From Rhizaria sp. SCN 62-66 (Eukaryota), in NCBI GenBank assembly GCA_001724265.1, contig MEDY01000275.1:62001-83714 (forward strand): 21,714 bases of DNA, given 5' to 3'. Under the pieces are notes generated by a model. It saw nothing but the letters and a program-made list of their open reading frames with translations. It was not told the origin of the DNA and ran no database searches. Below are positions 2-21,714 of the stretch, piece by piece. The position numbers and the translations under genes were made by a program. Each line of letters opens with the position of its first letter. The first letter of the stretch is position 1.

Positions 2-1921
2 CTGCGCGGTGTGCGCCGCCGTGGCCGCATTGATAGTGGCCGCCTCGCCGGCCGCCACACGCACAAGCGCCGCGGCGAGGCAGCCCACGACGTCGGCAAG
101 CTGCGCAGGCGACAGCGCATGGGCCGCAACCAGTCCCGCGATCGAGGCCGCGGGGTCCGTCAGTTGCGCCTGCGTGAAGAGCACGGCCGGCGCGGCACCC
201 GCCGCGGCGCCGCGCCGCCCGCCCGCGCCCGCGCCGCCCAGCCCGCCCAGCGGCCCGCCGACGGCGGCGCCCGCGTCAGCGTGGCTCATCATGCCGCGCG
301 CGCCGGCGCCGTCGAGAGCCAGCGCGCCGCGGCGGCCGTCGCGGCGGATCTTGCCACCGTCCCCGCTGGCCACGGCCACAGCGGCCGCCAACGAGACGGC
401 ACTCCCGTCCTCGTCGCCCCCCGCGGCGCCCCCGCTGCCGCCGGCCGCGGCCGCTGCCGAGGACGCCGAAGCGGAGGACCCGGCGGCGGCGACGTTGTGC
501 TGCTGGAGCAGCTGCTGCTGCAGCGCCGAAAGTGGCGCGCCCGAGGCCGCGGCGACAGTGGCGGCCTTAAGCGCGGCGATCGTGGCCGCGTGCTCCAACA
601 CCGCGACGCAGAGCCCGAGCGGCGCGTCCAGCGGCGGCTGGTCGTCGACCGCGCCCGAGGCACCCGCCGCCGCCACCAGTTTCGCCGTCGCGGATGACAT
701 CGTGGGCGCAGACGCAGATGACGCGGCATGGGTACCTGTGGCACCAGTGGGGGTCGCGAGGTCGGCGTCGTCGGTCATGGCGGACGCGGACGAGGGGAGC
801 AGCCCGTCGTCCTCGCTCTTGGCGCTGCCGCTGCCGTCCGCGGCGCTGAGACCGCCGCTGCTGGTGCCGTTAGGGTCGGCTTTGCAGCCGTGGCCGCCGT
901 CGAGCGCGAGCGCGGTGGTGACGATGCCGCCGCAGCGGGCCAGCGCCTCCTGCATCTGCCCGGCAGCACGCGCGTGCTGCAGCTGCTTGGCTGCCGCGCC
1001 GGGGCTAGCCACGGCGGCGGCCGCGGCGGCGGCAGCCGCGGTCTGCGCCTGCACGTGGCGCGACACGCGCGAGCCCGCCAGCGTCAGCGGCGCCGCGGGC
1101 TGCGCGGGCGCCGCGGCAGCAGCAGCGGCGGCGGTGGCGGCGGTGGCGGCGGTGGCGGCGGTGACGATGGAGCGGCGGTGCAAAGCAGGGGACGGGCCCT
1201 CGCTGCCGGAGCCAGGGCCGGGTGTGCCCGCGCCCGCGGACAGACCGGCGCTGTTGCCGTTTGTATTAAGGTGTCGGTGGCCAGCGGCGGCGGCGGCGGA
1301 GGCAGAGCCAGGGGTGTGGCGGGTGAGGGCGGCGGCCGCGGCGGTGGCCGTGACGCTCGCCAGCGCGGGCGACACGCCGTGGTCGTGACCGTGACCGTGG
1401 CCGTGGGCGCCGGTGCCGGTGCGGGAGGCGGAGAGCATGGCGGCCGAGTGTGACGCGAGCGCGATCGCTGACGCGGGCGCGCCGTGACTGTGTGCGAGCG
1501 AGTGCGCGTGCGCGGCGGCATGGAGGCCGTGCGAGGACTGGCGCGAGGGCGGCGTCACGGCGGCGGGCGCGGCGCCGGCGACGAGGAGCTGCTCGGGCGG
1601 GGACGGCGCTCTGCGGAGCTCACCAGCCAGCAGCAGCCCGGCTGCCGTCTTAAGGTACCCGGCGCTGGTGAAGGCCAACGACGAGTGCGGGCTGGGCGGG
1701 TACGTGTGCGAGTCTGCGGCTTCGCTCGCGGCGGAGGACGACGGCGGCGTGGCTGTGCCCGGGACGGGAGCAGAGAGGCCGTTGCTGGCGTGCTGGGCTC
1801 CTGTCGCGGGGGAGAGCTGAACTTGGTGGTGGCTGTTGAAGTCGCCCTTTGAGTAGGGGCGTTTCACTACCGGTTGGACATCACCAGGACGTCCGGAGGA
1901 GGAACCTGAAACTTCCGACAT
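2..1921 (-). CDS. Ala/Ser/Gly-rich hypothetical protein, 5' part only (at least 640 aa, runs off the left edge)
   Basis: Manual translation from ATG at 1921 (MSEVSGSSSGRPGDVQPVVKRPYSKGDFNSHHQ...) is open to position 2 (...TINAATAAHTAQ). It is absent from the ORF track because there is no stop in the window. GC3 is high, and a pyrimidine-rich leader precedes the ATG as in neighbouring genes. No family recognised. Confidence 0.8.
   Translation of the reverse strand, partial: MSEVSGSSSGRPGDVQPVVKRPYSKGDFNSHHQVQLSPATGAQHASNGLSAPVPGTATPPSSSAASEAADSHTYPPSPHSSLAFTSAGYLKTAAGLLLAGELRRAPSPPEQLLVAGAAPAAVTPPSRQSSHGLHAAAHAHSLAHSHGAPASAIALASHSAAMLSASRTGTGAHGHGHGHDHGVSPALASVTATAAAAALTRHTPGSASAAAAAGHRHLNTNGNSAGLSAGAGTPGPGSGSEGPSPALHRRSIVTAATAATAATAAAAAAAAPAQPAAPLTLAGSRVSRHVQAQTAAAAAAAAAVASPGAAAKQLQHARAAGQMQEALARCGGIVTTALALDGGHGCKADPNGTSSGGLSAADGSGSAKSEDDGLLPSSASAMTDDADLATPTGATGTHAASSASAPTMSSATAKLVAAAGASGAVDDQPPLDAPLGLCVAVLEHAATIAALKAATVAAASGAPLSALQQQLLQQHNVAAAGSSASASSAAAAAGGSGGAAGGDEDGSAVSLAAAVAVASGDGGKIRRDGRRGALALDGAGARGMMSHADAGAAVGGPLGGLGGAGAGGRRGAAAGAAPAVLFTQAQLTDPAASIAGLVAAHALSPAQLADVVGCLAAALVRVAAGEAATINAATAAHTAQ
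1128..1163. repeat. 9-bp tandem repeat (gcggcggtg)x4, encoding (Thr-Ala-Ala)x4 on the - strand
   Basis: Four perfect copies read directly from the sequence. Confidence 0.9.
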
Positions 1922-3343
1922 GGGAAGATCCGAGGCTGGAGAGAAAAGCGGGGAACGAAAGGGCGGGGAAACGGCGGCATACAAACGGAAGGTGAGGGGA
2001 GAGTTGACGGCAGCCGAAGACGAGGGACAATTTTGGCGCATATGACGAAGCTCTCAGGAAAGTATAAATCGTGTTCAAATAGTACTGGACAGTAAGAAAC
2101 ATCAGGGTGACGTCATTGTTTCAATATAGGTCTTCTTTGAGCGGCGAAGTCCGCGGAAAAAAGGGGGGCTCTGCGGACGAGGGGGGGGTTGTTCGTGCAC
2201 TTTGTCGGGAGACCGCCCGCCCACTACCGTGGGCGCGCCAAATCAAAGTAGATGTGGGAGAACTCACAGCACAAAAAGACGCCGGAAAAAAACTCTATAG
2301 CTGATGATGGCATTCTCTATGGCACCTGAGAGATCAAAACAACTTGCTCCCCAGATGGCTGAGAGCGCCTCTCGAGCCGGTGGTGCGGCTGGCAGCTCGC
2401 TACTTACACGAGAAAGGCATTTTTTTGTGTTTGTATACTTGCAGTCATGCACGCACTATTGGTTTTAAATAGAGCGCACTAACTACTTATGTATATAACC
2501 AGTCATATGGTTAAACCGTGTGGCTTAATGGAATATCAAGTCTGTTTAAGCATCCATCTCGGTCGAACGTCACTTGCTGATGCTGGTTGTCCACAAATGC
2601 AAAATTACCCCACGTATGTTCCGTGCAAAAAATGGTTTTCGAGGTTTCTATAATTTGTTTTCATATATGAGCGATGTTGAAATCCTTTTGAGTCACCGTG
2701 GTGGCTCATATGTCCCATCTTGGCCTGACTTGCAAGGTTCTTCATGTCTCTTCCTGATCGGATTTCCGGTATAGTACACCAGACGCATAACCAAACGGCA
2801 CGGGTGCGCTATAGTATCACATTTACGCTATTTCAAACGAATGGTGCTTGCTATGAGTTCTTAGCGTTTACTTTTTCAACGCTCATCAGCCCTTAAAGTG
2901 CAATCCTAACTCGAAATGACCGTGAGCACATGCGAAGGAGAGAGATATCTCATCTAAGCAGCCAGACTGACTAATACTACGCTAACAGCTGTGTATGCCA
3001 CAATGAAATCGCTCTAATCGTTGGAGGATTACGTGCGACTCGTTGTCTAACCTCTCATGTATCTGGATTTGACTAATTTGAAGGGTGACAGGCGCTGCTG
3101 TTGTCAAAATAGTCCAGCAAGCGTTCGTGGTGGACATCAATCTCAATGTTAAGCTCGCTGATGTCACCGCGAATCGACATTTGGACTATGGGAGTGGCGA
3201 TGTCTTGCTGGTAAAACCTACCTGCGCTAATAATATCACCTCAATCCCTGTCTATCCTGCCCATTTCTTCCCCCTTCAGACACACCACTTCTCACCAGCG
3301 ACGCGATCACCACTCTCAACGAGCCGCCTGTGCCTGCGTCACA

Positions 3344-5521
3344 ATGGGCCAGAGCTTATCCTTTGATGTTGAGGATCACCGCGGTGAGTACTATATTGCG
3401 AGCTCTCTCAAGTCCGCCCTCATTGCGAAGATTGCGGACACACGCTGCTCCTTCGCTCCCAAGGTTCGTCCCTTGCTCCCCTCGTTATCCATCACCTCTC
3501 TGCCCACAATTACTTCAATCAACTCCGCGCTCACTGCTCTTTTGTCCTAACACTGCCTCGCCTTGTTTCTACTTTAAACCGCGTCGATCCACTCTGATAC
3601 CACTGACGCGCGCTGCTCCAGGGCTCCCGCGACCGCGCGCGCAGCCTGATCACGACGCTGCCGCAGCTCTACGCCGACGTGGCCTACCTCAACACGCACC
3701 TCGCGCCGCTCTTCACGGACCCGCATCACTCCCACGAGCCTGTCTCCGCGCAGAACCCCGTGCCCGCGCGCCGCTGGTGGTTTGAGGTTGCGTGCCGCGT
3801 CCCCGCGCGCGCCGCGCTGGCCATGGCCCGCGCCGAGGTGACCGACGAGGGCGAATGTTGGCATCGCTGCAACACGTTCGTCGTCACGGCCGCGCTCATC
3901 CCCGTCGCCGCCGCCGCCTCCGCCGCTACTGCCGCGGCCGCCGTCGCCGCAGCGTCCGCGGCTGCGGTCGCCAACGGCAGCGGCAGCGGCGTCCGTCCGG
4001 CCTACTCGAACAGCAGCTCTCTCGCATCTCCCAACAACAACAACGGTGGCGGCAGCGACGCGGCGGTGTATGCGCTGCGGCCCAGCGAGTTCTACGCCGT
4101 GTACCTCTTTATGCTGGACCAGTCCGTTGTCGTTGCCAGCCCAATGCACACGCCCGTCGTCGGCGCCACCGCCGCGCACGCGCCCGTGCCGCCCGAGTCC
4201 GCACACGCGACTGCTCATGAGTCTGCTCATGCCGCTGCTCATGTCGCTGCTGACGCGACTGCTGCGAGTGCGGGCGCTGGGAAGTACGTCGCCAGCTCTG
4301 CGCCCGCGGCTGCCGGCGCCGCGGCTGCGGAGGCTGACCAGGATGCGATCGCCATCATTCCCAAGTCAAGCGCTCTGGAAGAAGTGGAGGAGGAGGAGGA
4401 TGGTGCCAAGGCTAACGGCAAGGGCCAGAGCAACAACAAGAACAGCGGCAAGGACAAGGGCAATGGCAAAGGTAAGGGCAAGGGTGGCAAGGGCGGCAAC
4501 ACCAACAGTCAGGGCAATACGGACAGCGACGAAGGCAAGGACAAGAAGACTGAGTCTGCCGCCTCCGCCACGACGGCCACTGACGCAACGCCGGCGCAGC
4601 CTGAGCCCGCCGCCGAGCCCGCCGTTGCGTCGCCGTCGGCGTCGTCGGTCGTGCTGACGGCCGAGGAGGAGGAGGCCGCCGAGCTGTGCGCGATCTGCTT
4701 TAACAACAAGGTGTCGACCGTGCTGCCATGCTCGCACGCCTTCTGCAACGACTGCCTCGACGGATGGTACGAAACAGACTCAAACAACCCAAAGACACCC
4801 GTGTATCAATGAATATAACGCTTTGGCATATTATGTTGTTTTGATGCATCTGAAAACTCTCTCACATTTTTAATCTTTTCCGAAATTGTCTCCTTTTTGC
4901 GCTGTGTCACACAGGACCAAGAGCAACATGAACTCATCTAACAGCAACCGCAGCGCCCCCCTTGGCAGCGACCCCGGCGGCGCCGGCGACAGCGAGGCCG
5001 CGGAGGAGACCTGCTGCCCGATGTGCCGGGACCCCACGGCTGGCTCAGCGCACCGCTACGACCTCGTCGACAAGGACGACGGCCGACAGGTACGCGGGGA
5101 AACCAACCATGTTAAACGATCATATTTACGTGATTTGACGCTTTTATATTGAATTGTGAAACTGTTTTTACTTGTGTATATGTATCACACTTGCCAACGC
5201 TATTATGTCCATTTGTTTTCCTTTTTTATATTCCTGTTTTAGTTCGTGATTGACAACCTCATCGCCCGCCTCCGCGCCTTCATCAAGAAACGCCCGACCG
5301 TCGCCCTGCGTCCCGAGCCTGCGCCCGCGCCGAAGCCTGCGTCCATGCCCGCGCCCGCTGCTGCTGCGGCTGCTGCTGCGTCTGTCCCCGCGGCTGTGCC
5401 TGAGGCCGCCTCTCCGCCAGCGAAGCCCGACTCAGAGTCGGCGGTCGCTGCTGAGGATGTCAGTTTTTCCATGGATAACGACAAAAGCAGTGGGAGGGCT
5501 CCTGAGAGCGACACCAAGTGA
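3344..5521 (+). CDS. RNF141-like C3HC4 RING-finger E3 ubiquitin ligase, 4 exons (3344-3463, 3622-4766, 4915-5089, 5243-5521), 572 aa
   Basis: Three GT-AG introns join the ORFs in frame. N-terminus MGQSLS fits Gly2/Ser6 myristoylation, and RNF141 begins MGQ. Segments LYADVAYLN...WWFEVA...LRPSEFYAVY resemble the RNF141 N-domain as I recall it. RING is CAIC-x11-CSHAFCNDC-x37-CPMC. Ends in TGA. Confidence 0.8.
3464..3621 (+). other. Spliceosomal intron 1 of RING gene (158 nt, phase 0)
   Basis: Donor AAG|GTTCGT, branch-like CACTGAC at 3601-3607, acceptor CTCCAG|GGC. Splicing keeps the frame. Confidence 0.65.
4767..4914 (+). other. Spliceosomal intron 2 of RING gene (148 nt, phase 2)
   Basis: TG|GTACGA...ACACAG|G rebuilds the conserved RING Trp codon and joins the two halves of the RING. 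AT-rich. Confidence 0.85.
5090..5242 (+). other. Spliceosomal intron 3 of RING gene (153 nt, phase 0)
   Basis: CAG|GTACGC...polypyrimidine tract...TTTTAG|TTC. AT-rich and frame-preserving. Confidence 0.85.
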
Positions 5522-6046
5522 AAAAGTTAACATGTATTGATGTTTTACCTGACCATATCTGTCTCTGTGTCAATGTCTGTGTGACTCGACGTGTCTGTGT
5601 CCAGTGTACCATACCTATCAGGCCAGTGTAATTGTTACCGTCACAAAAGCTCAGAAATTCTGCGAATATGTTGCATGCGCGCTCAATTTTGACGAATTTA
5701 TTTTTTATTTTCCTCTGTAATACCGCATTTCAAGCAAAAGTACAATACTTTTTTTGTTATGATGCTGTTGTTTCTTTTGCTATGATTTTTTTGTCAAGTT
5801 TTTTTGTCAAGATCAAGAAACTTTTCATTTTTAAAAATTCTTTACTCATAGACCATCATAATTTCAAAATAAAACTTTGTTATTTTGCATAGATAATAGT
5901 ATATTAAGATTACCACATATATTACAACTCATATTGTATCATGTTCACGCAACGAATACTCAAAAAGCACTGTTCTATTACATTCCTGGCCAGCATTCGC
6001 TCTCACCTCCAGCCACTTACAATCCATCACTCTGTCAGTGATCTGC

Positions 6047-8398
6047 TCAGTTGTCCCACTCGGAGCCGTCAAAGCCGATGAAACCGGTGGCGAGGAAGAG
6101 CGGGAAGAAGTGCTTCTCGGGCAGCTGGTTGCACCAGTTCCATGCCGACGTGAGGCGGCCATCGATGCAGCTGCCGGCCTCGAAGTAGTTGTCGCCGCCC
6201 GATCCGTCAAATGCGAACTTAAAGAAGTCCGAGAGGATGACCCGGCGCGCTTGCTTGCGCGAGCCGTAAGCGGTGTGGATGAGCACCGGAAGGCGCTTGT
6301 TGGGGATGCTGTCCTCGTCCAACACGCGGTCCAGCCCCTTGAGGCACAACACCACGGGGGCTAGGATCTTGGCCACCTGCGGAGAAACAAAACAAACAAT
6401 AAAGAACCAACGAAAAGGAGAATTGAAAAAATATATGTGAGTCTGTAGCATAAATGTTTGTTGGCAATTGAGTGTTGAATGTGTCAATGATGTCGGAACG
6501 AAAATGTCTAAGAGTCATTTGTTTGCGGTTTTCAAGAGTGCTATAATATAACCATGACGTACCTGGTTGTACTTGTCAATGAAGGCGTATGCGTTGGGCA
6601 CGTTCTTGTCGCCCAGGTGGATAACCGAGGACCCGACCCAGTTGCCGGCCTTGACCTGGGCCGCGTTGACGAGACTGCGCATGGCGCGGTCGGTGCGCGG
6701 CGCCTGCTGCAGCCGGTGCAGGCCCTGGCCCGTCTGCGTCAGCGTGTACGGGTTCGGCGCCGACAGCCCCCCCAGCTCGCCGGTCACGTCCAGCAGGTCC
6801 AGCTCGGCGAGGGACCAGAAGCGGAAGAAGTCGTCGAGCAGGTCGCGCCAGAGGCAGAGCGACTGCAGCACGAAATGGTACTGCGCAGCGTGCGAGTGCG
6901 TCAGGCGCGCGCCGTCGGCGCCCTCGACGATGGCCAGCGATGTCGTCTCGTCGTTCGGGTCTGTCTGCACGGGCGAAAAGAGCGACTTCAGGTAGTCGAT
7001 CAGCGTGTTGCAGTGGTCGCGGCTGTCGTGCAGGAACGAGTGGTTGTCGGTGATCGAGTAGAGCGCCATCGACAGCGTTTCGCGGTCGATCTCGCGCGAC
7101 GTGTACCGGTCCAGCAGCTCCTTCATAGCACTGTCGCGGCACGTCTTGTCCTACTGAATCGCGATGCGGTCGCGCCCGTGGTGCGCGATGATCTGCGTCG
7201 CGACGGCCAGCAGCGGGTCCCTCAGCACGCCCAGCGCCTTGCGCTCCTCCAGCAGCGAGTACACCGTGCGCACAGGGCGGATGCAGGAGAAACCCAGCTG
7301 CTCGCGGACCTCCTCCTGCTGCGTGTCCTGGAGGAAGAACATGAGCTGCGCGTAGCTCAGCCGCATCTTCTCTGGGTTGCGGATCTTGTGGCGCCGTCCC
7401 AGCTCGAAGATGTTCTGGAAAAAGGGCGCGAACACAGTCAGGTCGGCGCCCGCGAGCACCTCGCGGCCCACGCGCGTGTCGCCGCCCGCGACGAGCGCGG
7501 TCAGCACTGACACAACCTCGAGCACGCACGCGCGGGTGCGCGCCGGCTTGCTCTTGAACTCCTTGTCGACGCGGTCGGCGTACGAGGAGGAGCGCAACAC
7601 ACCCTGCAGCAGCCGCAGCAGCTTGCGCTCCTCGTGCGTCAGCCGGAGCGGGATGAACTTGGACCGCTCCAGAAACCACTCCGGCTGCGGCATCTCGCCG
7701 CGCCAGAAGGCCGGGAGCGAGCCCGCGTCGGCGGCGATGCGCTCGGCGTGGCGGAGCGATTCCTTCTCGCTCATGGCGTCCACCGCGGCGGTCGACGCCG
7801 CGTCCTGCGCCGTCGTCAGCGCAGAGATCGCGGCCGCGGAGGCGGAGCTATTCGAGGTCGTCACCGCGCCGCTGCCGTCCGCCGCGTCGGCGTCGGCCTC
7901 GTCCACGGCGGCCGCCGCGCCGGGGGCGGCCGCCGCGCCGCCGAACAGCTTGGCAGGGACGGGCCGGGAGGCCGAGACCGGGAGCGGGCGGTGCAGCGCG
8001 CGACGACCCTTGCGGTGGTTGATCTCAAAGCAAAGCACGCAGAAGGCGTCGCCGCACTCGCCACACAGGGCGTCCGAGGGTGCAGCCTCGCACTCGCAGC
8101 AGACTGCGTGGTCGACGGCGTCGACGGCGCCGACTGAGGCTGCGGCAGCAGGGGCGGCGGCCGAGTCCGTCATGGGCTGCGAGCCCAGTAAGGAGACGCT
8201 ACCGGTCTCAGCGTCCTCGTCGTAGGCGGGCTCGGTGGACTGCAGGATGGCGTCGAGCGTGCCGCCCTGGCTATTGCTGTTCTTGGAGTTCTTGAGCAGG
8301 AACTTGAGATCGAAGTACTGCTGCTTGACGTTCATGTAGTCCGTCGCGCCGAACTGGCTCGGTCCGGAGCCGCCGTAGAAGGAGAATCCCCCAAACAT
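6047..8398 (-). CDS. UPF0652/DUF2009 family protein with N-terminal B-box zinc finger, 2 exons (8398-6563, 6376-6047), 721 aa with in-frame TAG at codon 416
   Basis: Family motifs ERSKFIPLRLTHEERKLLRLL, RRHKIRNPEKMR, GARLTHSH, WVGSSVIHLGDKNVPNA and FDGSGGDNYFEAGSCIDGRLTSAWNWC. ORFs 7151-8398 and 6515-7126 share a frame and are separated only by TAG plus 8 codons. Ends in TGA. A possible acceptor AG at 8409-8410 leaves the true start slightly uncertain. Confidence 0.9.
6377..6562 (-). other. Spliceosomal intron of DUF2009 gene (186 nt, phase 0)
   Basis: On the - strand CAG|GTACGT...TTGTTTCTCCGCAG|GTG, giving FIDKYNQ|VAKIL, which matches the family motif. AT-rich. Confidence 0.9.
7991..8101 (-). 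other. B-box-type zinc finger within DUF2009 gene
   Basis: CCECEAAPSDALCGECGDAFCVLCFEINHRKGRRALH. Confidence 0.85.
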
Positions 8399-9265
8399 CC
8401 GCGGGGGTCTGCAGTAAAGAGCGCAGGCAAGTGGTTAGGAGGAGTTCGGAGGGATGAGCGAAGTGAAGCAAACTTCGGTGGTGCATGAGATTGGTGAGTG
8501 CGCTTAAAGAGACTCTGTAGACAGATAACCGCAGGAGTTTGCGGGTTTATTCACTAGTTTATATAAAAAACCACAATTTAACCCAGATTCAGTTCGGACG
8601 TTTCATATAACGACGAGTGTCTCCCATAATGGCGCGTCTACGAAAGTCAACATCTCGTTCGTCCTCTTTGTACGCCAACCACAAACTGCACAGCTTCACT
8701 GTGATTATACTTTTTTTCACATGTATACACACCAGGATCATTAAAGATCATGCTTATTTCGAGATATAATATCAAAAACATAATTTCCTTGGTTAAAATA
8801 GATAATTTATTTCAGACTCATGTGGTTGTAACATGTCGGGCTTGTCGAGGAACCCAAGTGCGACGCATCAGTAACGAGCAGTCGCATGGAGAGAAACAAA
8901 CAAAGACACACAGACGCAGCCCCTGTAAAGATCAGATACTGGACGTGCTTTGAATAGCAGTAGAAACAATCAGGATAGCTGATATACATAGAAAACAACA
9001 GTGACAAGGCATTGCACAAATTGGCACCAACATGTACACATCAAAGCAGTTTGTTCACATGACAAGAACTACTCCCAACAAAACATTCCAAGACAGAACA
9101 AAGGATATAACAAGGAGAATCAAAGCAAGAAAGGACGACTTCGACGAAAAAGAGGTTTGGATTTTAGATAACAGTGACACTCACGATGGCAAGCACGGGC
9201 AGCGACTTACCTCGTCACAGTGCACACACATGCCTTCGTTCGTGACGGACGACGACGTGCGCCGT

Positions 9266-12200
9266 TCAGTCCCACAGGAACGAGATGATGACGCGCATGC
9301 CGTTGCTCCAGTAATTCCTCTCGCTGACGGACCGCGCCTGCAGGTCCAGCGTACGCTCGGCCGTGATGATTGAGAAGCACAGGTCTTCATCGACGTCCTT
9401 GGCGCTCTTCTGCATCACCTTGGTCTTCTTGCCGTCGACGACACGCACGAGCTGCTTCGTGAACACCATCTTGCCCGTACCCCAGTCAATCGACACGGTC
9501 CGGTTGTCCTGCATGATGCGCATCACGACCATACGTTCGTGCGGTTTGCCCAGGCGCCCGTGCTTGAGGAACATCTCGCCCACGAGGGCCGCGCGTACGA
9601 ACTCAGTCGCAATCTCCCAGTTGTTCCGCTGCTCCTCCTCCTCGGCCGTCAGAATCTCGCCATCCTCCTCATGCTCCTCCTCGGCCTCGCGCTCCGCCGC
9701 GGCGGCCGCGGCGGCGGCGGCGGCGGCGGCCGCGGAGGGCGCGGGCAAGTTCTCATACTCGAGCTCACGATGCCCGGCGTCGTGGTGCCCCTCGTCCTCA
9801 TCCTCGTAGTCGCCCTCGCCGTCCTCGTCCTCGTAGTAGCCTTCGTCGTCGGCTTCGTCCTCACCCAGCGCGGTCCCGTGCCGGGGCCCGCGCTGCGGCG
9901 GCTGTTGCTTGCCGCCGCGCAGCTCGTAGTCGATGGGGGCGGCCGCGTCGGCCTCGGTCCGCGGGTCGCCCAGCCGTGCTAGGTGCGCGCGCTTCTCCTC
10001 GCGCTCCGCCGCAGTCTCGGGCGCTACACCGCCGTTGACGCCGTTGACGCCGCCGCGTCTGCCACGGTTGGCGTTGGCGTTGTGCAGCATGTCGTCTTCG
10101 TCCACCTCGGGCTGGTGGGCGCCGGCGCGCGACAGCGAGTGCTCGCGGTCACCGTCCTCGCCCAGCGCCTCGGCGATCGCGCTCGCCGCCGCGGCCGCCG
10201 CGGTCATCAGCGCGTAGTCCTGTCCGCGCGCGGGGGGGCGATCGCCCGCGCTGGGGCTGCGCGGCGCCGGCTGCTGCTGAGTCTGTTGCTGCTGCTGTTG
10301 TTGCTGGTGCTGGGTGGTTTCGAGCACGGGGATGTTGTCGAAGCTCTCGTCGAAGCTCGAGTCGTGACCGCCCACGGCGGCGCCCGCTCTCGCTGCGGCG
10401 GCGGCGGCGGCGGCTGTGACCGGAGAGCGCGCCTGCGGCCGCGGGCCGAGCGCCTGGTGCTGCTGCGGCAGCGGAGGCGACTCGCTGCGCCGGGCGCCGT
10501 CGCCGCCGCCCGCCGCGGGCTTGTCGCCGTGGCCGTGGCCGTGGTGCTGCTGCTGCTGGGGCGTCTGGGGCTGCTTCTTGGGCTCCATCGTCATGTTCAT
10601 GTGAGGTCGGCGCGGGCTCGCGATAGTCACCGCGGGCGCGAGCTTGAAGTGCGCGCCCGCGCCGCCCGCGCCGTCGGCGTCGTCGTCCTCGCAGTCGCCG
10701 CCGTCCTCCTCGTCGTCCGAGAGGCCCTGGATGAGCGCGTCGACCTCGCCCAGGATGTCCATGTGCCGTTGTGCAGCCGCGGACTTGACGCCCCCCCCGG
10801 CGTGCGCCGCGCCGCTCGCGTGGCGCGCCTCGGCGGCGTCCTGCATCGCGTGGAGGTCGCGCTCCTGGCGCAGCCCGCGCAGCCGCGCGTCCGCTTCAGG
10901 ATCCGCAGCGGTGGTTGCACCAGGGGTAGGCGCAGGCGCAGCAGCGGCAGGAGCGGCGGCAGCGGCTGCAGGAGCGTTGGCGTGGGAGCGCGGGGCCAGC
11001 GCGGCGGCGGCGGCGGCGAGCGCAGCGCCAGTGGCCGCCGCGGCCGCCGCGGCCTCCGAGGTCGCGACTGCGGCGGGCACCGCGGGAAAGACAGGCGCTG
11101 GCGGGCGATATACCGAGAAGGCGACGGTGCCCGCGGGGACGGTGGCGACGAGCTTGGGTAGCAGCGCCGTCAGCGCGGGCTCGCGCGGGAACGCGGCAGC
11201 CGCGGCGGCCGTCAGCGCGGGGTGCGGCACGTTGCGCACGGCGCGGAGCTGGTCCGCAGCGGCCTGCTGCACCGCGGCGACCGCGGCGGTCAGCCACCCC
11301 GCCTCAGGCAGGAACGGCGCCGCGGCGGCCAGCGCGGCGGCGACCGCGGCCAGCGCGGGCAGCACGTGCTGCGCGGGCGCGCTCGCCGCCGCCGCCGTGG
11401 GCTTGCCCGTGATGGTCACGGCGAAGGGCGCCGCGGGCACCAGCGCCAGCGCGGTGAGTGTGGCCGCGACGAGCGTCTGAATGTAGGCCGCCTCCAGGTG
11501 GTCGAGCGGCTCAAAGCCCAGCAGCGGGCGCTGCGACCACGACGCCGGCGAGCGGGCCGCGGCGTAGGCGCGCGCGGACTCGGCGAGGGCGCCGAAGACG
11601 GCGGCGGCGGAGGACGTCGACAGCAGATGACATTGCGCGGCGCCGGCCGCGGCGGCGAGAACGGCCGCCTCGGACCCCGCGGCGGCAACCGGGATGCCCA
11701 CGGTCGCCGTAACCACGTCGCCCCCCGCGCCCGCGGCGGCGTCCCCAGCGGCGGGGAGCAGCGTGCTGCGGGCCGTGGCGAGCACGCGCGCGACGGCCGT
11801 GGTGGGGTCAAGCGGCCACCCCAACGCCGCGGCCTGCGCGGGCGCCGCGGCGTGCGCAGTGGCCGTGGCGGCGGCGCCGCGCAGCGCGGCGGCGGCCTGC
11901 AGCAGCGGCAGCCAGAGCGGCGCCTTGGCGGGCCCAAGCGCGGCGGCGGTGCACGCGGGCAGGCTCTCGGCCAGCGCGGCGGCGTCGTTGAGCGCCAGGT
12001 CGCACAGCGCGAGGCCGACATGCGCGTCCGCCGAGACGGCCAGCGCCACGGGCGCCGCCGCGTCCGCCGCCGCCGCGCCCGCCGAGGCCGAGCTGGCCTT
12101 GGCGGCAACGTACTTGACGGCCTTGTCGAAAACCTTGCGCGCCTTGTCGTGCAGGCGCAGATGGTGTTGCGCCCAGCCGATGGCCACCACGGCCGAGATG

Positions 12201-13531
12201 TCGTTCTTGACGGCCGCGAGCGTCTGTCCGACCAGCTTCAGCACGCCGGCGCCGGGCACCGCTGCGGGAGCTGCTGAGTCAGCAGCGGCCGCGGCCGCGG
12301 GCGGGAGGACTGTGAGCACGGTGGCCGTGGTGGCGAGCCGGGCGGCCCGGACCGTGAGTGCGGCCGACGCGTTCTCGGTGTCCGCGACGGCCTCGATCAC
12401 GCCGCGGAACGCGCCCTGCACCGCGGTGACATACGCCTCCGCCGCGCCGCTGCTGCCGGCGCCGCTGGCGTGGCTGGGGCGGGCGAGCGCGTCGAGGAGC
12501 AGGATGGAGCGCGAGGAGACGAGCGAAAGCGCAGCGGCCTCGCGCCCCGGACCCGGCGTGGCGGCGTCGGCCTGCGCGAGCGCGCGCGCCTTGTCCCACT
12601 GCGAGAGCCCCGAGGCGAGCAGCACGCGTGCCTTCTCCTCGGCGTGCGGCGTGAAGCCCGGCGCGGCGAGCTGGATGCGCTTGAGGTCCTTGAGCGCGTC
12701 GACCCACCCGCGGTCCACGGCGTGCAGCCGCGCGCGCAGCAGCAGCGCGCCCGCGTCGCGCGCCTTCGCGGACCCGCGCGTAAGCGCCAGCGCCGTCGCC
12801 ACGTGCGCGCGTGCAGACGCCACGTGCGCGGCGGCGGCGGCGGCGGCGGCGGTCGTCGCGGGGGTCGAGGCGGCGCCCGCGGCGGCGGCCGGGTCGGTGA
12901 GCGAGATGGCGGGCGGCAAGAAGGCCAGCGCGGGCAGCGGCAGCGCCTCGCACGCGAGTGCAAGCGCGACGTCGGCGGCGAGCGCGGGCGCGGACGCGTC
13001 GGTGGCAGGCGACTTGGCCGCCACGCGGTCCGCGCACTGCTTGGCCTTGTCGAGCTTGCCCGTGAGCAGGAAATAGCGCGCCACGAGCGCGAGGCCCTGC
13101 AGCGAGGCCGCCTTGAGCTCGCGCTTGAAGGCCTCCTTGTGCGCGGGCGTCGCCGGGAGCGTCTTGTCGCGCGTGGTCGACACGGCGGCCAGCGCGGCGG
13201 CGCGGGCGCTGGGGGCCGCGGGCGCGTCCGCGACCAGGGGCGCGGCCGGGTCGGCCATCGTCCTCAGCAGCTGGCGCGACTGCAGCGCGTCCGGATGCGC
13301 GAGCGCGCGCCAAAACCGCAGCGCATCCGTCTCGGTTGCGGTCAGCGGCGCCGTGGCGCCGTCGGCGGAGGCTGCCACGGAGCCCGCCGCGGCGGCAGCG
13401 AGAGCTGCGTCAGCGACCGAGTAGGCGGCCGCCTTCATGTCGTGTGAGAGCCAGTAGAACGTCTCGACCAGCGCCGGGTGGGTCAGCGTAGGCACCACGA
13501 CGGCGGACGGGTCCACAGCTGACGTGGCCAT
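9266..13531 (-). CDS. TPR protein resembling the N-terminal half of IFT139/TTC21, fused through a disordered acidic/Gln-rich linker to a C-terminal PH domain (1421 aa, no intron needed)
   Basis: Uninterrupted ORF with first ATG at 13531 (MATSAVDPS) and TGA stop. Helical blocks such as ARYFLLTGKLDKAKQCADRV, ALLLRARLH...WVDALKDLKRIQLAAPGFTPHAEEKARVLLA..QWDKA, IGWAQHHLRLHDKARKVFDKAV and AHVGLALCDL follow the order I recall for TTC21B. PH domain at the C-terminus. Confidence 0.75.
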   Translation of the reverse strand: MATSAVDPSAVVVPTLTHPALVETFYWLSHDMKAAAYSVADAALAAAAAGSVAASADGATAPLTATETDALRFWRALAHPDALQSRQLLRTMADPAAPLVADAPAAPSARAAALAAVSTTRDKTLPATPAHKEAFKRELKAASLQGLALVARYFLLTGKLDKAKQCADRVAAKSPATDASAPALAADVALALACEALPLPALAFLPPAISLTDPAAAAGAASTPATTAAAAAAAAHVASARAHVATALALTRGSAKARDAGALLLRARLHAVDRGWVDALKDLKRIQLAAPGFTPHAEEKARVLLASGLSQWDKARALAQADAATPGPGREAAALSLVSSRSILLLDALARPSHASGAGSSGAAEAYVTAVQGAFRGVIEAVADTENASAALTVRAARLATTATVLTVLPPAAAAAADSAAPAAVPGAGVLKLVGQTLAAVKNDISAVVAIGWAQHHLRLHDKARKVFDKAVKYVAAKASSASAGAAAADAAAPVALAVSADAHVGLALCDLALNDAAALAESLPACTAAALGPAKAPLWLPLLQAAAALRGAAATATAHAAAPAQAAALGWPLDPTTAVARVLATARSTLLPAAGDAAAGAGGDVVTATVGIPVAAAGSEAAVLAAAAGAAQCHLLSTSSAAAVFGALAESARAYAAARSPASWSQRPLLGFEPLDHLEAAYIQTLVAATLTALALVPAAPFAVTITGKPTAAAASAPAQHVLPALAAVAAALAAAAPFLPEAGWLTAAVAAVQQAAADQLRAVRNVPHPALTAAAAAAFPREPALTALLPKLVATVPAGTVAFSVYRPPAPVFPAVPAAVATSEAAAAAAATGAALAAAAAALAPRSHANAPAAAAAAPAAAAPAPTPGATTAADPEADARLRGLRQERDLHAMQDAAEARHASGAAHAGGGVKSAAAQRHMDILGEVDALIQGLSDDEEDGGDCEDDDADGAGGAGAHFKLAPAVTIASPRRPHMNMTMEPKKQPQTPQQQQHHGHGHGDKPAAGGGDGARRSESPPLPQQHQALGPRPQARSPVTAAAAAAAARAGAAVGGHDSSFDESFDNIPVLETTQHQQQQQQQQTQQQPAPRSPSAGDRPPARGQDYALMTAAAAAASAIAEALGEDGDREHSLSRAGAHQPEVDEDDMLHNANANRGRRGGVNGVNGGVAPETAAEREEKRAHLARLGDPRTEADAAAPIDYELRGGKQQPPQRGPRHGTALGEDEADDEGYYEDEDGEGDYEDEDEGHHDAGHRELEYENLPAPSAAAAAAAAAAAAAEREAEEEHEEDGEILTAEEEEQRNNWEIATEFVRAALVGEMFLKHGRLGKPHERMVVMRIMQDNRTVSIDWGTGKMVFTKQLVRVVDGKKTKVMQKSAKDVDEDLCFSIITAERTLDLQARSVSERNYWSNGMRVIISFLWD
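9275..9600 (-). other. PH domain (Mcp5/PLC-like subtype)
   Basis: GEMFLKHGRLGKPHERMV...IDWG...VVDGKKTKVM...CFSIITAERTLDLQARSVSERNYWSNGMRVII, with the invariant C-terminal helix Trp and a basic beta1-beta2 loop. Confidence 0.9.
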
Positions 13532-14259
13532 CGCTGTGGGAAAGCGCGGTATGGGCAGGGAGTGGACGGAACAAAGTTGGACAGAGAGCAAGGCGTGACA
13601 GTGAGAGGAGGAGTTGAAGAGGCAGATATGACCAGGTTTGGCGAGCTCTGTAGGAACATTATTAAAAATTTGGATATTAATTTATCACGGTCCAACCGAA
13701 GAAATGCACTGATTCACAACTTCATGAGCAGGTGACGTGGAATGACACGCTTAAAATCGTCGATTGATGCCTAGGCGCCCAGTCGCTGGCGCAGTGGCCT
13801 TGCGGCCAGCTAATATCACACCCGAGAAGGTGATCTTTAACATGCAGCAGCGCACTTCTTTGACCGTCTTTATCTTAGTAAGCCACGAATTTCATTATGC
13901 TCGTTTGTACTATAACTGCCATTTTACTCCACACTTTATCGTATATTGTTGTATTGCTCTGTCCGTGTTCTTGCAAAGCTGGATTTCAACGGGCATGCTA
14001 CGTATGGTCTGCCCCAGACCTAGACCCAGAACTCACACTCAACACTTATTTTTACTATTTTTGCACGGACCCTAATCTAGAGCACTTACTTACAAAACAT
14101 CTGAACTGCACTATTACACTTGAATCGCCTCGAAACCCCTCCAGGTCCATCGCCGCAGTGCCCGTGCGACCCCTTTTCTGGCGCGTCAGTCGCCCCTCGC
14201 TCCCGCCCTCACTCTCCCTCCGCTGTGACTGCCCTTCTCTGCCTGCTGTTGCCTGATTC

Positions 14260-15864
14260 ATGTCACAGCCGAACAACGCGCGCTCCGGTGCCCCGCGGCC
14301 GGCGCTCGAGGATGACGACGACGACGTGCCGTCTTTCATCGCCATCTTGTCGGAGCAGGGCACTCTGCCACCCCGCCCTGCGCCCGCCCCCGCGCCCACC
14401 GCGGCGTCGGTCTACGCACCCGCGACTGGCGCCGTGGAGGGCGCGTTCACGGCGCCCGCGGTGACGCGCGCGTTCTCGGCGTTGTCCGACGCAGACTACA
14501 CGTCCTCACCCACCTACGGCAACAAAAACGGTCACCTGCACGCCTACGGCAGCCCTGGGGGTAGAAACGCTGCCGGCGCTGCTGCCGGCGGTGGCGCGAG
14601 TCTGTCCCCGCCCCGCCCCGCCCCCGGCCGCGCCCCGCGGTCCCCGCGCGGGCTCACGCCGCGCTCGCCGCCGAGCGACCGTGAGCAGCTGGGTGACCGT
14701 GAGCAGTTGGGTGGGGTGGTCGGCAGCGGCGCCGCGGTCAACCCCGACGACGGCGCCAGCGCGGCGTACCCCAACGCGGCGGGCAACATCAACGTGAACC
14801 TCTTCGGCGGCGGCAAGCCCGCCCGCGCCCGGAGGGACGATGACGACGACGGCGTGCCCGCGTTCATCCGCATCATCTCCGACGATATCCCCGCTGCGGC
14901 GGCTGCAAAAACGACTATGAAGGCTGCGGTTGACGATATCCCCGACTCAAGCTCGCTCGATGGCTCTGGCAACGGCATCCCGACCCTCCCCGGCCTCACT
15001 GCCACTGCCGCTGCTTCCGCAACTGCGACGATCGTGGCCGCGACCGCCGCTGTGCCGCCGCTGCTGATCTACGCGCCCGCGCCGGCGCCGCTGCCGAGCG
15101 ACTACGCCGCGCCGCTGGTGTCCTACCACACCTCCGCTCCGCGCCGCCGTGGCAGGCGTTCGGACCCGGCCTCGGCGTCCTCTGCGGCCTCCCTCAACGG
15201 TGACGACTTTGGCTCCGGGTCTAGCGCGGCCGCGGCCGTCGCCGAACACATTCCACCGGCGCAGCTGCTGCTGCCCGGCGCGCTGCCCGCGCAGCCACGC
15301 GTTGCGCTCGCCTTCCCACCCTACACCGCGCCCGCGGTCTCCGTTGGCGGCGGCAGCGGCGGCGGCAACGGCAACGCGCAGTCCGCCGCGTCGGCCGCGT
15401 CGGCCGCCGCCGCCGCCGAGGCTGCCGCGGAGGCCGCCGAGCGCGCGGAGCCGATCGTGGTGTACTCGAGCGCGGGGCTGCGCGGCGATGAGGTCCGCGG
15501 GCGCCGCCTGCGTGTGTGCGCGCTGTCCATCTTCCTCCCGCTCCACATCCTCCTCGCGCTCATCGTCTTCTTCTTCCTGCCCTACTCCATGGACGCCGGC
15601 GGCGACGCGCGCTACGACGACCTGGCGCTCGCGGCGTGCGGCATCGGCGTCGCGGCCGCCGTCGCCGTCATGTGGCTACAGTCGCCGCTGCTGCTGGGCG
15701 TCTTCGTCGTGGCATACGTGCTCGACGCCCTCATCAACCTCGTCCGCTTTGTCAATATCGTCCAGTTCCTCGGTGTGCTCGTGCAGCTACTTATTTGCTA
15801 TCTAATTGCGGGGTATGGGGCAACGTTGCAGCCGTCTTGGGTCAAGCTGTAGCCCGCTGCATGA
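14260..15864 (+). CDS. Membrane protein with long disordered N-terminus and about 4 C-terminal hydrophobic helices (534 aa if TAG 15850-15852 is read, otherwise 530 aa)
   Basis: ATG at 14260 after a pyrimidine-rich leader. Hydrophobic segments ALSIFLPLHILLALIVFFFLP, LALAACGIGVAAAVAVMWL, LLLGVFVVAYVLDALINLV and IVQFLGVLVQLLICYLIAG. End reads CTG TAG CCC GCT GCA TGA. Confidence 0.8.
14677..14712 (+). repeat. 18-bp tandem duplication encoding DREQLG x2
   Basis: gaccgtgagcagctgggt followed by gaccgtgagcagttgggt (one synonymous mismatch). Confidence 0.9.
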
Positions 15865-16737
15865 GCTAACTGTGTTACTGTACTAGTTAATGCCGGATAG
15901 CAAGCACGGCGCGCACGACTTTTGACACCTTTGTTGCCTTTAAGTTTACGTAGTTTTAAAAAAGTTTTTCAGTTTCTCTATGTTGTTTTGTTAAGTACCT
16001 TTTTAGATTGTCTTTCTAGCCATTATTCGCCTGACTATCTCTTTCCACAGCAGTGCGCATCATTATTGTGCACTTTGTGTCAACCTTGTTTCTTCTTTCC
16101 TTAAGTGACTTGCGCACAGTGCTGCAGGCCAGCTTGATGTTTGACGCCTTGAGGAGTCTGCATACGTGCTACGCACCCCGTCGGGTTGCGTGGGTTTATC
16201 ATTTGTTACCTAGTTTCGTTCTTGCAGCAGTGCAGCGAGGATGGTCATCTCAAGTGCACTAACTCAAGTTACTACCTATAGACCAGGATAATACACAGTT
16301 ATAACTTCACTATACACACTTTGAGAGTAAATACACCATAAGAAGTACTATTGTGCAATATTGGTGCGATCGCGGTAATTTGACGCCCGGTATAGTGCAA
16401 ATATGCGGTGCGGTGAGGCGCGACTGTGAGCAGGCGCAGTGCCCACCCATCATCATCCGCGTTGAGAGGACTGTTGTTCAACACGGTCCTTTGACGTACA
16501 TGTAACGGAAAAGTCAAATGTATAACGCTGGCCAGTGAGTTTACTTATAATTGTCTTTATATTTTAAATTAAACTTTCCTCACACTTCTTATTACCATTG
16601 TGCACCCACGGTTTCAGGTCTCTTTGTCTGCTTGTGCGACCGTCCGTGTATCTCCTTGCGCAGAGCCAGTTTCACGCCACCACAGCTTTCCTGCTGCTGG
16701 TTTCTTTCACCCTCTCGGAACCCCATCTGCTAACATT

Positions 16738-19700
16738 ATGTCTGCGTTGGGATTTGCTTCAAGGTCGAGTAGCTCTGCTCGCGCCCGCCCACCAGGTGCG
16801 TCTACCTCGCCAGTTTCGCCTGCGAGTCATACGGTGGCCCGCGCTGCGGCTGACTCTTTCTTCGTGTCGTGCCTTGCTGACACGCTATCTGCCGCTGCTG
16901 AGTACATCATTGACAGCCGCAAGCGTTATACGCCCCTTGAAGCCATCAATGCTGCCCTGACCTCGCTCCCGGCCTCCGCAGCAGCCCCTGCACAAGTCAC
17001 GCAATCTGCCCCCGCCGTCTCTGCCGCCCTCGTCTCTGCTCCTGCTTCTGTCCCGGCTCCTGCGCATGTCGCCGCCTCGGTGCCGGTTTCTATTGTTACT
17101 GCTTCTTCTGTCCCAACCACTGCCTCCGCCTCTGGGCTGTCGTCCGCGGCCACGGGCTCCGCCGCGGTCGCCGCGCTGGCCGCGCTGCCGTGGGACGCGC
17201 TACTGGACCCAGCGACCTACGGCGGCGCGCGCGGCGGAGGCGGGCTCGACCCCGAGACCGCCGCGCTGCTCACTCTGCTGCGTGACGAGGCGCAGGCCGC
17301 CAACGCATCTCCTGATGCGAAGACTGCGCAGGCTGGCACGAGCGCGGGCACAAGCGGCAACAAGTGGAGCAGCAAGAAACATGATGACGTGCCTGCGTTG
17401 CTTGCTGCGGCGCCTGGGAGCGACGTTCTGCCCGCGCCCGCGTTTGTCCCTGCCAAACCCACTTTGCTGGCGTCCTACGACGCTTCTCTCCTTGCCCTCA
17501 TCAACAACAACGACGGCAACGCCAACGTTCGTAGCAGCAACAACAGCAGCACCGCTGCGTCGGTCGCCGCTTCTGCGGCTCTGCCGCTGCCGCTGCCGCC
17601 GCTGCCCCCCGCGGCGGGCACGGCGGCCGCCACGCTGGCGCGCGCAGCGCTGACCGCGGCGGACTCGGCCCTGGCGGCCGCAGGCGTGCAGCACGCCACC
17701 GACGCGGCGCTTCTGGCCGAGGCGGCACGCCGCGCGGACCGGCTTAACGCGCAGGTCGCCGCGCTCGCCGACGCGCAGGCCGTGTGGGACGACCGCGAGG
17801 GACTGCGCGGCGTCGAACGTGGCGCCGCGGCGGAGAGCTGGGAGGCCGCACTCGCCGCCGCCACCGAGGCCGGGGCGCGGCTAGCTCGGTCGGAGGCGCG
17901 GGAACGCGAGCGGCTTGCGCGCGCGCAGGCGCGGGACCAGCTGGGCGGCGAGCGCGCGCGGTGGCGCCGCGAGCGCAGGCGCGTGCGCGCGCTGGTGAAG
18001 CGGGCGAACGAGGCGCGCGTGCTGCTCGTGGCGGGCGGCGACGCGGCCGAGGTGCTGGCCGCGCTCGATGGCGTCGCCGACGACGCGGCCGCGACCGAGG
18101 CCGAGGACGCCGAGCGCAGCAACGGCTATGAGGCCAACGAGCACGATGATGCTGAGGAGGAGGACGACGGTGACGCCGACGGCGACGACAGCGGCGACGA
18201 CAGCACGCTCGAGGAGACGGCGGCCGCCGTGCCCGGGGTGCCTGCGCGCGCGCCGCGCGTGGCTCGGCTGCAGGCACGCATCCGCGTCCTGCTCTGCGAG
18301 ATCGCGCGCCTGAACCACGAGGACGTGGCTCTGCCGTACAGCGAGTACGACGCGCTGCTTGCCTCGCTCACGCCGGCGGGCTCGACGCAGGCACTCGCCG
18401 CCGCCGCGGCCGCCGCGGGCGCTGCGGGCGCGGGTAGCAACGGCTCCGCGGACGACGCCGCGAACGAGACGCTGACCCGGGCCGCGAACGGCGAAGGGTA
18501 CTACGGTGTGCTGCCGTTTGCGGTGCTCGAGCTGGCAGAGGAGGAGGCCGCGCTGCTCACGACGGCGACCACAGCTGCGACGCTTAGCAGCGGCAACGAC
18601 GCCGACGAGGAGGCCGCGCAGCTCCTCTCTGCCGGTGGCCTCTCCGAGGAAGTTCTCGCCGTGTTTGCCCACCTTAACGCGCAGCGCGCTGCTGTCGCCG
18701 CGGTGCTCGATGCCGCCGACGCTGCACCGGCCACGTTTCCCGCGGCGCACGGCGGCGCCGCGGCGCTCCCGGCACTGCCCAAGGTCACCCCGCCACCCCG
18801 CATCGGTCTGCGCGCGCAGAACACGCTGCTGCGGCTCGCCCTGCGCGCCGTGCAGCGCCGTGGCGGAGACCTGGCCGCCGTCGCCGCGACCACCGCCGCA
18901 GTCGCCGGCCGCAGCGGGCGGTTCGCGGCCTCCGAAGCTGAACTGCGCCGACGGCTGCACAAGAGCCAGGCCGCGCTTGCGCGGTCCGTGTCGCGCGAGG
19001 CGATCGCGGCCGCCGCGGCCGAGGCCGGCGCGATTGCGGCCGCGCGCGAGCCGCGCCTGCTGGCGTCGCTGCGCACGTGGCGGGCCCGTGCGCGCGTGAT
19101 GCACGGCGATCGCGCGCGGCTGTGGGCAGTGGTGGACTCGGTGCTGGGCGCGCAGGGCGCCGTGTCGACCGCGAGTCAGCCCGCGCTGACCACCGCCGCG
19201 GGCCTGCGCAAAGCCGTGCAGGGCGGCTGGGACGCGCTCGCGAGCCTGGGCGTCGCGCTGGGCACCGCGGACGCGGCGTTCCCCGGCGTGCGCGACCCCG
19301 TGTCCGCGGCCAAGTTCGCCGCCGGCACGGTGCGGCCCATCACGGGCGCCTGGGGCGGCGGCGTGGGTGCCAAGCGCAGGCCCGTCCACATTGCGGAGAG
19401 CGCAATTCCGGGTACGCACATGGCCATGACAGCTGCTGATGATCCGGGCGAGTATGCTGCATACGGTGATGAGTATGAGGGCGACTACGATCTCGACGCT
19501 GAGGCCGCTGCGGACGCCGTTGCTGAGGCGGAGTACGAGGCGTATCAGGCCGATCTCAATGCCACCGTGGCCAGCAAGCCCGTTGCCAAGCCTGTCCCTG
19601 TTGCGCTCGCTGCTGGCGGACCGGCGACTGCCGCTGTTGCCGTCGACAGCACCACGAAGCGCACTCCCAAAGCGAAGACTCCTCACGGCAAGGTCTCAAA

Positions 19701-21261
19701 GGACGCTGCAGAGGCGGATGGCCTGGACGAGATGGACTCGTACATTGACTCACTGCTCGCTTACAACGTTGACGGTGATGCTGATGAGGAGCACGCTAAC
19801 GCCGACGCAGCACATGATGATGACGGCGGCATTGAGGGCACCGGCGACGGCAGCGAGAGCGACATTGATGCTGGCATTGCGTTCGACGCTTTGTCCCCCA
19901 TCATCACGCGCAACCCGCTGATGCCACGCTCTGCTGTTCGCTCGCCCCACCACAGCACTGATAGCTACCACACCTCTGTCGCGCCTAGGAGCAGTACTAC
20001 TGACGGCGGGTTCAAGCCGCTGACTCCGCGCGAGGCCAATATCATCTTGTTTGGCACTGCGACCCCCGGCGGCTCCCCCAGTCACCGCAAGCAAGATGAG
20101 TCCGAGTCCGCGCCGGCGCCGGCGTCGCTGTCAGCCGCTGACGTCGGTTTCCCCGCTACGTCCGCGCAGCCGCGGTCCACGGCGTCGCTGCTGCGCACGC
20201 ACCCGCGCACCGCGGCCACTGCGCGCAGGGCTGGACAGACTTCGCTCACGATCACCGAGGCGATCATGGCGCAAGATGAGGCCGATGCAGCTGGGTAGTC
20301 ACAACGTGCCACCAGTGGTGTGCGTTCGCGCGGTCGCAACGAAGCTGACTCGCCCCGCGTCACTTCTCGCTCTGCTGCGAGTCAACAGCAACAGCAGCAG
20401 CAGATGCAGTCACCGCAACAGTCGCAGTCTCCGTCGCGCCCGCGCTCGCGCTCTCGCCTGCGCTCCCCGTCCGCCCACTACGACCTCACCAGCGCCGACG
20501 CTGGGGATGGCGACGTGTCGGACGCTTGCACCAACGCGGCAGTAACGGCTGCGGTCGAGTCCACGCTGGTCGTGCACACGATGCTCGCGCCGACGCCGCC
20601 CGGCTCCGCGCGCCGCAGCCTGCGCGACGTCTCTCTCAGCGAGCTCGCCGCCGCGCAGGCCGCCTCGACCCGCTCACACGCGCGGTCGCTGTCGCCATCG
20701 TACTCGCAGCGCGCAGCGCTCAGCGCCGTGGGCGGCGCCGCGGCGGCCCCTGTGCGCCGCGTCTTCGTCGGCCCGCCCGGCGCCGCCACGCTCGTGACTA
20801 TGGACCCCGCGGACAGCCGCAGCATGTCGCCCGCGCGCGGCACACATGGCCGCCCCGGATGGGCCTCGGGGCCGCCCACGCCCGCGGCCGCCGCAGCCGC
20901 TGCAGCCGCCGCGACGGCCACGATGGGCTCCAGCAGCGCGCGCGCACGCAGTCGCAGTAGCAGCCGCGAACGCTCCTACGGCGCGGCTGCGAGCGCCAGA
21001 GTCGGTGGTGGAGTCAACGACACGGGCGAGAAGGGGTATCTGAAGACGACGTCGGCGTTGCGCACGCGTGCTGAGGAGAACGTGGCGCTGATCGAGGATA
21101 TGAAGCGACGCGAGGCGAAGCGTATCACGTCCAGCAGTCGGCGCTCGCAGTCTCCGGCTACTGCTGCTGCTCATGGTCACAGTCAGCAAATGGCCGTGAC
21201 GGCAGCGAGCAACCGTACAGGAACACCTCTCAAGCAGCAGCAACCGATGTATTGGTGGTAA
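16738..21261 (+). CDS. Large Ala-rich hypothetical protein with predicted coiled-coil segments and Ser/Arg/Pro-rich tail (1507 aa with in-frame TAG at 20296-20298)
   Basis: First ATG at 16738 (MSALGFASRS). ORFs 16600-20298 and 20320-21261 are in the same frame, separated by TAG plus 7 sense codons, with no AT-rich spacer. E/R-rich helical stretch at about 17700-18030. Ends in TAA followed by an abrupt drop in GC. Confidence 0.75.
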
Positions 21262-21323
21262 AGATACGCTAAATTTAACAAAATTAACCTAACTACGAAC
21301 GTAACCATTTATTTACCCGTGAT

Positions 21324-21329
21324 AATAAA
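21324..21329 (+). promoter_or_regulatory. Possible polyadenylation signal AATAAA for gene 16738-21261
   Basis: AATAAA about 60 nt after the TAA, in the 263-bp spacer between convergent genes. Could be chance in AT-rich DNA. Confidence 0.3.
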
Positions 21330-21524
21330 CAACTAGCAACACATTCATGCTCGCACAAATCTTGCATACGCGTAATCGGTAGATGAAAGGAGTAGGAATT
21401 TTCTAATTGCAATCAGAATGTATTAGAGAGAAATGTACAAGCACGAACACGCCGCGAGGCGCGTTTGGCGGTGACCGAGGTCAACACCGTACGACTGCAG
21501 GTTTCTAAGAGCAGGTTAGGGCAC

Positions 21525-21713: not shown

Positions 21714-21714
21714 C

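Follow-up and report, generated by a model that had tools for sequence, protein, structure and literature searches.

In the window analysed here (the whole stretch of 21,714 nucleotides), UAG alone is probably read as a sense codon, and UAA and UGA remain terminators; we give this reading a probability of roughly 0.7. The first-pass annotation of the same DNA had proposed TAG as sense, and the proposal is supported by the present analysis, in which none of the contrary signs named by that annotation turned up and whose evidence is a pair of internal TAGs within a single 21.7-kb stretch. One of these TAGs interrupts a gene for a DUF2009 protein, whose features are as follows.

6563 to 8398, minus strand: exon 1 of the DUF2009 gene, starting at ATG 8398; PF09418 match, E=1.4e-120
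About 8104 to 7988, minus strand: putative B-box-like zinc finger in exon 1; Cys/His columns, sub-threshold PF22586 match
About 7666, minus strand: start of the DUF2009 domain (PF09418) in exon 1
7151 to 7153, minus strand: in-frame TAG, residue 416; one ungapped alignment column, kept in spliced cDNA
6377 to 6562, minus strand: sole intron of the gene, 186 nt, GTACGT..AG, GC 0.35; removed in a cDNA contig of run X4
6047 to 6376, minus strand: exon 2 (6376-6050) and stop codon TGA (6049-6047); PF09418 match, E=1.5e-40

When spliced and read through the TAG, the gene encodes a protein of 721 residues. In a Pfam search, the PF09418 match runs unbroken across the TAG, with residues 257-627 aligned to profile positions 1-359 (403.9 bits, E=1.4e-120); exon 2 accounts for positions 355-455 of the profile (140.1 bits, E=1.5e-40). 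Both matches exceed the gathering cut-off of 25 bits and together they cover the whole profile. On these matches, the gene product belongs to the PF09418 family of non-canonical E2 ubiquitin-conjugating enzymes. A characterised member, PF3D7_0811400, is described as having its catalytic cysteine, C572, 36 residues before the end of the domain (domain 118-608; PMC12007708). The window protein is like E2s of this type in its full-length PF09418 match and in having, close to its C-terminal end, the conserved cysteine motif AGSCIDGRLTSAW, which is encoded in exon 2 and whose cysteine is kept in all nine full-length homologues aligned; it is unlike them in being interrupted by a TAG codon. By its position, the cysteine of this motif would be the equivalent of C572. 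Because the putative catalytic residue is encoded 3' of the TAG, a protein ending at the TAG would be without it. The TGA at 6049-6047 coincides with the homologous C-terminus in the homologue alignment. Fungal and oomycete DUF2009 members carry an N-terminal B-box zinc finger, and the N-terminus of the window protein may likewise be B-box-like, although its match to PF22586 reaches 24 bits against a cut-off of 27. Eight positions, C112, C115, C124, C127, C132, C135, H140 and H148, hardly vary in the alignment of DUF2009 homologues.

The minus-strand codons around the TAG are CGC ATC GCG ATT CAG TAG GAC AAG ACG TGC CGC GAC AGT GCT ATG AAG, and the surrounding peptide is RDRIAIQ*DKTCRDSAMKELLDRY. 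The first-pass annotation had located the codon at 7127-7165. The TAG, at 7153-7151, does fall inside this range, but the 39 nt quoted with it lie at 7159-7121, an offset of 6 nt. The frame from 8434 to 6515 contains this TAG as its single stop, and the frame of exon 2 is free of stops up to the TGA. Downstream of the TAG, exon 1 contributes 196 residues and exon 2 a further 109, 305 in all; with the GT..AG intron at 6562-6377, this agrees with the earlier estimate of about 300 conserved residues and a clean intron. The TAG is also the sole lesion, as had been claimed: the 305 codons after it are free of a second one, and splicing of the intron persists.

In the alignment of 119 homologues, the TAG occupies exactly one column, with zero gaps at the TAG or within 15 columns downstream of it; the gap columns nearby are only those 8 and 10 columns upstream. 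The alignment and the unbroken PF09418 match agree with the earlier view of the TAG as one gap-free residue position. Residues in this column are R in 52 of the 119 homologues, K in 48, A in 8, S in 5, Q in 3, and E, G and H in one each. The column had been expected to be polar or charged, which is true for the family; in the nearest relatives it is mostly Ala, the five nearest, all of them metagenome sequences, having A, A, A, A and E. The two closest relatives, L002 and P0008, have Ala at this column in a DUF2009 gene without the TAG, which counts against the sense reading, and the codon in L002 is GCG.

Evidence from other assemblies and from RNA came from the contigs of four runs (X3, X4, X6 and X8), which were aligned to positions 1715-21714 of the window. 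X4 is a cDNA library, and its record 11 has a joint at 6374/6561 ('cut +2') that leaves out 186 nt bounded, as read on the plus strand, by CT..AC. The contig is continuous over 6561-7542 and unchanged at 7151-7153, and it differs from the window at five sites (7163-7165, 7169 and 7231), all within 80 nt of the TAG. Record 19 of X6 has the same five differences but retains the intron, and the intron-less X4 contig is therefore spliced RNA and not an intron-less allele. Four intergenic bins that are covered in the DNA runs have almost zero depth in X4; with its depth on genes and nearly none between them, it behaves as RNA. UAG is thus present in the mature, spliced DUF2009 mRNA. A check of RNA across the TAG had been set beforehand, and the spliced cDNA contig carries the TAG with neither a mini-intron nor editing. 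The records listed for X8, a polyA RNA run, do not reach 7151-7153.

All four assemblies with coverage of the site carry the TAG: X3 record 3, which is identical to the window there, X4 record 11, X6 record 19 and the metagenome contig L001. The X3, X4 and X6 contigs are independent and come from three studies, and two DNA haplotypes carry the TAG. A base-call error or a heterozygous nonsense allele, raised as possibilities in the first-pass annotation, would be at odds with this distribution, as no sense variant occurs among the covering assemblies. The run data are contigs, from which minor variants drop out and from which the amount of full-length protein cannot be gauged.

The haplotype shared by X4 and X6 has further peculiarities. 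At 7163-7165, plus-strand GAT is replaced by ATC, which in the gene changes ATC (Ile) to GAT (Asp) 10 nt upstream of the TAG; such a substitution of three adjacent nucleotides is unusual between strains. The other changes are one synonymous and one from Gly to Arg. The X6 haplotype also has small indels in spacers at 21398, 16447 and 16646, including a 15-nt insertion after 21398, and all of the indels listed lie outside coding stretches.

Selection on the gene was gauged by comparison with L002, at dS values of 0.8-1.0. The dN/dS ratio is 0.235 over the 304 codons downstream of the TAG and 0.238 over the 171 domain codons upstream. Measured against seven more distant homologues, p-distances downstream of the TAG are 0.369-0.495 for the window, 0.372-0.497 for L002 and 0.389-0.509 for P0008, so the window lineage is not accelerated relative to the other two. 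The approximately 305 residues after the TAG are under purifying selection equal to that before it. Relaxed selection downstream, which had been named as evidence against a sense TAG, is not found: the ratios are alike on both sides, and distances to the outgroups match those of the sisters.

Stop codons elsewhere in the window bear on the meaning of all three triplets.

20296 to 20298, plus strand: second internal in-frame TAG, in gene 6, an orphan low-complexity gene running from ATG 16735 to TAA 21259-21261
15850 to 15852, plus strand: third in-frame TAG, in a membrane-protein gene with its start near 14260; it lies at the gene's 3' end, and TGA 15862-15864 follows 4 codons later
21525 to 21714, minus strand: C-terminal 62 codons of an actin gene and its TAA (21527-21525), placed by homologue ends
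5519 to 5521: TGA stop codon of a RING gene, from a model made by eye

The 320 codons that follow TAG 20296 form the only open frame among six and have the top codon score in all four sub-windows. Their GC content is 0.707, compared with 0.714 upstream of the TAG and 0.33-0.50 in noncoding DNA, and the TAA of gene 6 sits exactly at the turn to AT-rich DNA. A contig of polyA RNA from X8 covers 20162-20517 unchanged, including the TAG at 20296-20298. A phmmer search across this TAG against 1.84 billion representatives returned only the two pieces of gene 6 itself, P0133 and P0134. As gene 6 is without homologues, TAG 20296 has no alignment column; the support for it as a second sense TAG consists of coding statistics, whereas the DUF2009 TAG has an aligned column; the window contains no further conserved genes. 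Coding-type composition stops exactly at the third TAG, 15850, which may be either sense or a terminator; a word-based search with the C-terminal region of gene 5 found nothing at E<=0.01.

Aligned with two full-length actins, P0197 (384/384) and P0204 (375/375), the actin fragment finishes at their final residue. As the homologue ends confirm, TAA in the actin gene and TGA in the DUF2009 gene are genuine terminators here. From composition shifts or from the gene models themselves, TGA also ends gene 4 and the RING gene, and TAA ends gene 6. Counted from gene coordinates, there are 2 internal TAGs in about 5,400 codons. The contexts of the three TAGs are TAG GAC, TAG TCA and TAG CCC, with no shared downstream motif, and to our knowledge none of them matches the classical readthrough contexts. 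A tRNA scan and an Rfam scan of the 21.7-kb window gave zero matches each; like the small number of internal TAGs and the position of TAG 15850, this counts against the sense reading.

Several other explanations of the DUF2009 TAG have to be weighed. That the codon is an artefact, or is hidden from the ribosome by processing, is extremely improbable. A base-call or assembly error would have had to occur in the independent contigs of X3, X4 and X6 and again in L001, and a mini-intron over the TAG or editing of the UAG would have left a joint or an altered letter at 7151-7153, where the spliced cDNA contig follows the DNA without a break (6561-7542); excision of 7131-7154 would also cost 8 aligned residues. 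It is very unlikely, too, that the TAG is an ordinary stop created by a nonsense mutation, making the DUF2009 gene a recent pseudogene or a gene for a truncated protein of 415 residues. Standard-code predictions do stop at residue 415, both in P0016 (4 contigs) and in P0128 (1 contig), a one-residue variant of P0016 that represents a third haplotype, and the nearest relatives have a sense codon at the site, as with the GCG of L002. Against a nonsense mutation, the TAG turns up in samples from three or more studies and is shared between haplotypes that later came to differ at 5 sites close to it. The 305 downstream codons have no second lesion, the intron is still spliced, downstream dN/dS remains at 0.235 in a lineage without acceleration, and the same pattern recurs in a second gene within the same 21.7 kb. 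The first-pass view that the gene is not a pseudogene is thus upheld by equal purifying selection on both sides of the TAG, by continued splicing and by the absence of another lesion.

We also consider it unlikely, though less so, that UAG is still a stop codon and is merely leaky or dual in function, being read through internally by a near-cognate or weak suppressor tRNA and terminating translation near 3' ends, or that readthrough is programmed in particular genes. The position of TAG 15850 at the end of coding composition, backed up by a TGA 4 codons on, would fit such a scheme, as would the rarity of in-frame TAG (only 2 internal instances among about 5,400 codons). TAG is a true stop in a relative at 57% identity, which makes the change a recent and possibly unfinished one. 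With weak readthrough in the middle of a catalytic domain, however, most of the product would be truncated and lack the C-terminal cysteine motif, whereas selection is as strong after the TAG as before it; nor do the three TAG contexts have a downstream motif in common.

If UAG is a sense codon, a residue would be inserted at UAG by a tRNA, either one whose anticodon is the cognate CUA or a strong near-cognate, and eRF1 would have lost UAG recognition or have it weakened, with the outcome that the full-length E2-like enzyme would be made. The inserted amino acid cannot be read from the alignment, as there is a single TAG column and it is variable; assignment from that column (R or K family-wide, Ala in the nearest relatives) was rejected. 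By analogy, our guess would be Gln, then Leu. The time of the change is limited by L003, the contig that encodes P0010, which is 57% identical in protein sequence. On it, a gene for a tail-anchored, syntaxin-like SNARE ends at a TAG right after the membrane helix, and since this relative stops at TAG, the code change would be younger than the split between the two. The SNARE gene lies at L003:13992-15533, and an earlier TAG at 14310 is probably intronic. A more specific version, in which a UAG-only reassignment has been caught early on a GC-rich background in a hitherto unsampled lineage of wastewater reactors, is speculative and rather doubtful. In it, UAG would be either ambiguous (sense within genes, terminator at 3' ends such as 15850) or would encode a residue new for UAG in nuclear codes, given Ala in the nearest relatives and Arg or Lys in the wider family at the aligned column.

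Nuclear codes in which UAG alone is sense are described for the rhizarian exLh (UAG=Leu) and for Iotanema spirale (UAG=Gln; PMC5304391), and further for phyllopharyngean ciliates (Leu or Gln), Protocruzia (Gln) and Scotinosphaera (Ser; PMC11687900). The window is like those codes in having in-frame UAG in conserved genes, UAA and UGA as stops, rare UAG, a change that looks recent, and close relatives with the standard code. It is unlike them in evidence, with 2 internal sites here and hundreds published, and in its host, an uncultured GC-rich eukaryote with coding GC of 0.62-0.77, in which one TAG may still terminate. In the accounts given by the same sources, nuclear codes that separate UAG from UAA were unknown before 2017 and are still few (PMC5304391; PMC11687900).

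Codes in which both UAA and UAG specify Gln are described for Amoeboaphelidium protococcarum, hexamitid diplomonads, many ciliates and ulvophytes (PMC5304391; PMC11687900). These share with the window the reading of a stop codon of the standard code as sense in nuclear genes. A code of this type (NCBI table 6) was rejected, because TAA terminates in the window, ending actin at its canonical C-terminus and gene 6 at the turn to AT-rich DNA. Ambiguous codes, in which a codon is both stop and sense, are described for Condylostoma and for UAA in Blastocrithidia (PMC4967479; PMC12153298). A possible likeness to these is that the internal TAGs would be translated while TAG 15850 stands at a gene end; the difference is that the ambiguous codons are frequent there, as far as these sources describe them, whereas TAG is rare here. 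TAG 15850, with a TGA 4 codons later, is no evidence of termination at TAG.

Literature searches turned up no report of a UAG-only code in a GC-rich eukaryote of wastewater or activated sludge. The kind of code is already known, and the lineage appears to be new. If the reading is true, a further independent UAG-only case would inform how code changes begin, and its value would come from the GC-rich eukaryotic host and from the relative at 57% identity, in which TAG remains a stop. A practical consequence concerns gene calling. On this reading, use of the standard code already truncates proteins of this organism in public collections: P0016 has 415 of the 721 residues, and gene 6 appears as two pieces, P0134 and P0133. 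The code of such metagenome bins should therefore be checked when they are annotated.

The stretch recurs in runs from wastewater, bioreactors and activated sludge, in 11 studies, 6 of which have at least half of the sampled words. The DUF2009 protein of the window is 72% identical to that of L002 over 622 columns. In a tree of 63 rows, drawn from 120 listed matches with the window and L002 added (quick method, LG+G4), the window, L002 and P0008 group together (SH-aLRT 100) and are joined next by P0009-P0011 (100), among the matches listed. This clade of six metagenome sequences falls outside the sampled fungi and oomycetes; other supergroups are absent from the matches listed. The L002 orthologue (L002:189-2300) is intron-free where the window gene has its intron, and it ends in TGA. 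Actin was tried for taxonomy and rejected: the best match, the metagenome protein P0197, is 95% identical over 62 aa, and the named matches are scattered among animals, plants, fungi and alveolates, which gives no placement. In the cDNA run X4, summed contig depth over the actin at the window edge is in the hundreds to thousands.

Composition in the window is bimodal, with GC of 0.62-0.77 in ten coding segments and 0.33-0.50 in nine noncoding ones (introns and spacers). The encoded proteins are very Ala-rich and of low complexity, and Pfam gives no match for three of the seven gene products. The introns at 6562, about 4767 and about 5090, some of them predicted, start with GTACGT, GTACGA and GTACGC; all three are AT-rich and 148-186 nt long, and cDNA confirms only the one in the DUF2009 gene. 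One more gene was noted.

9266 to 13531, minus strand: Ala-rich protein of 1,421 residues with a weak TTC21/IFT139-type ARM match at the N-terminus (30 bits, cut-off 40) and a weak PH-like match at the C-terminus

The ARM match, if real, would be a hint of a flagellated organism.
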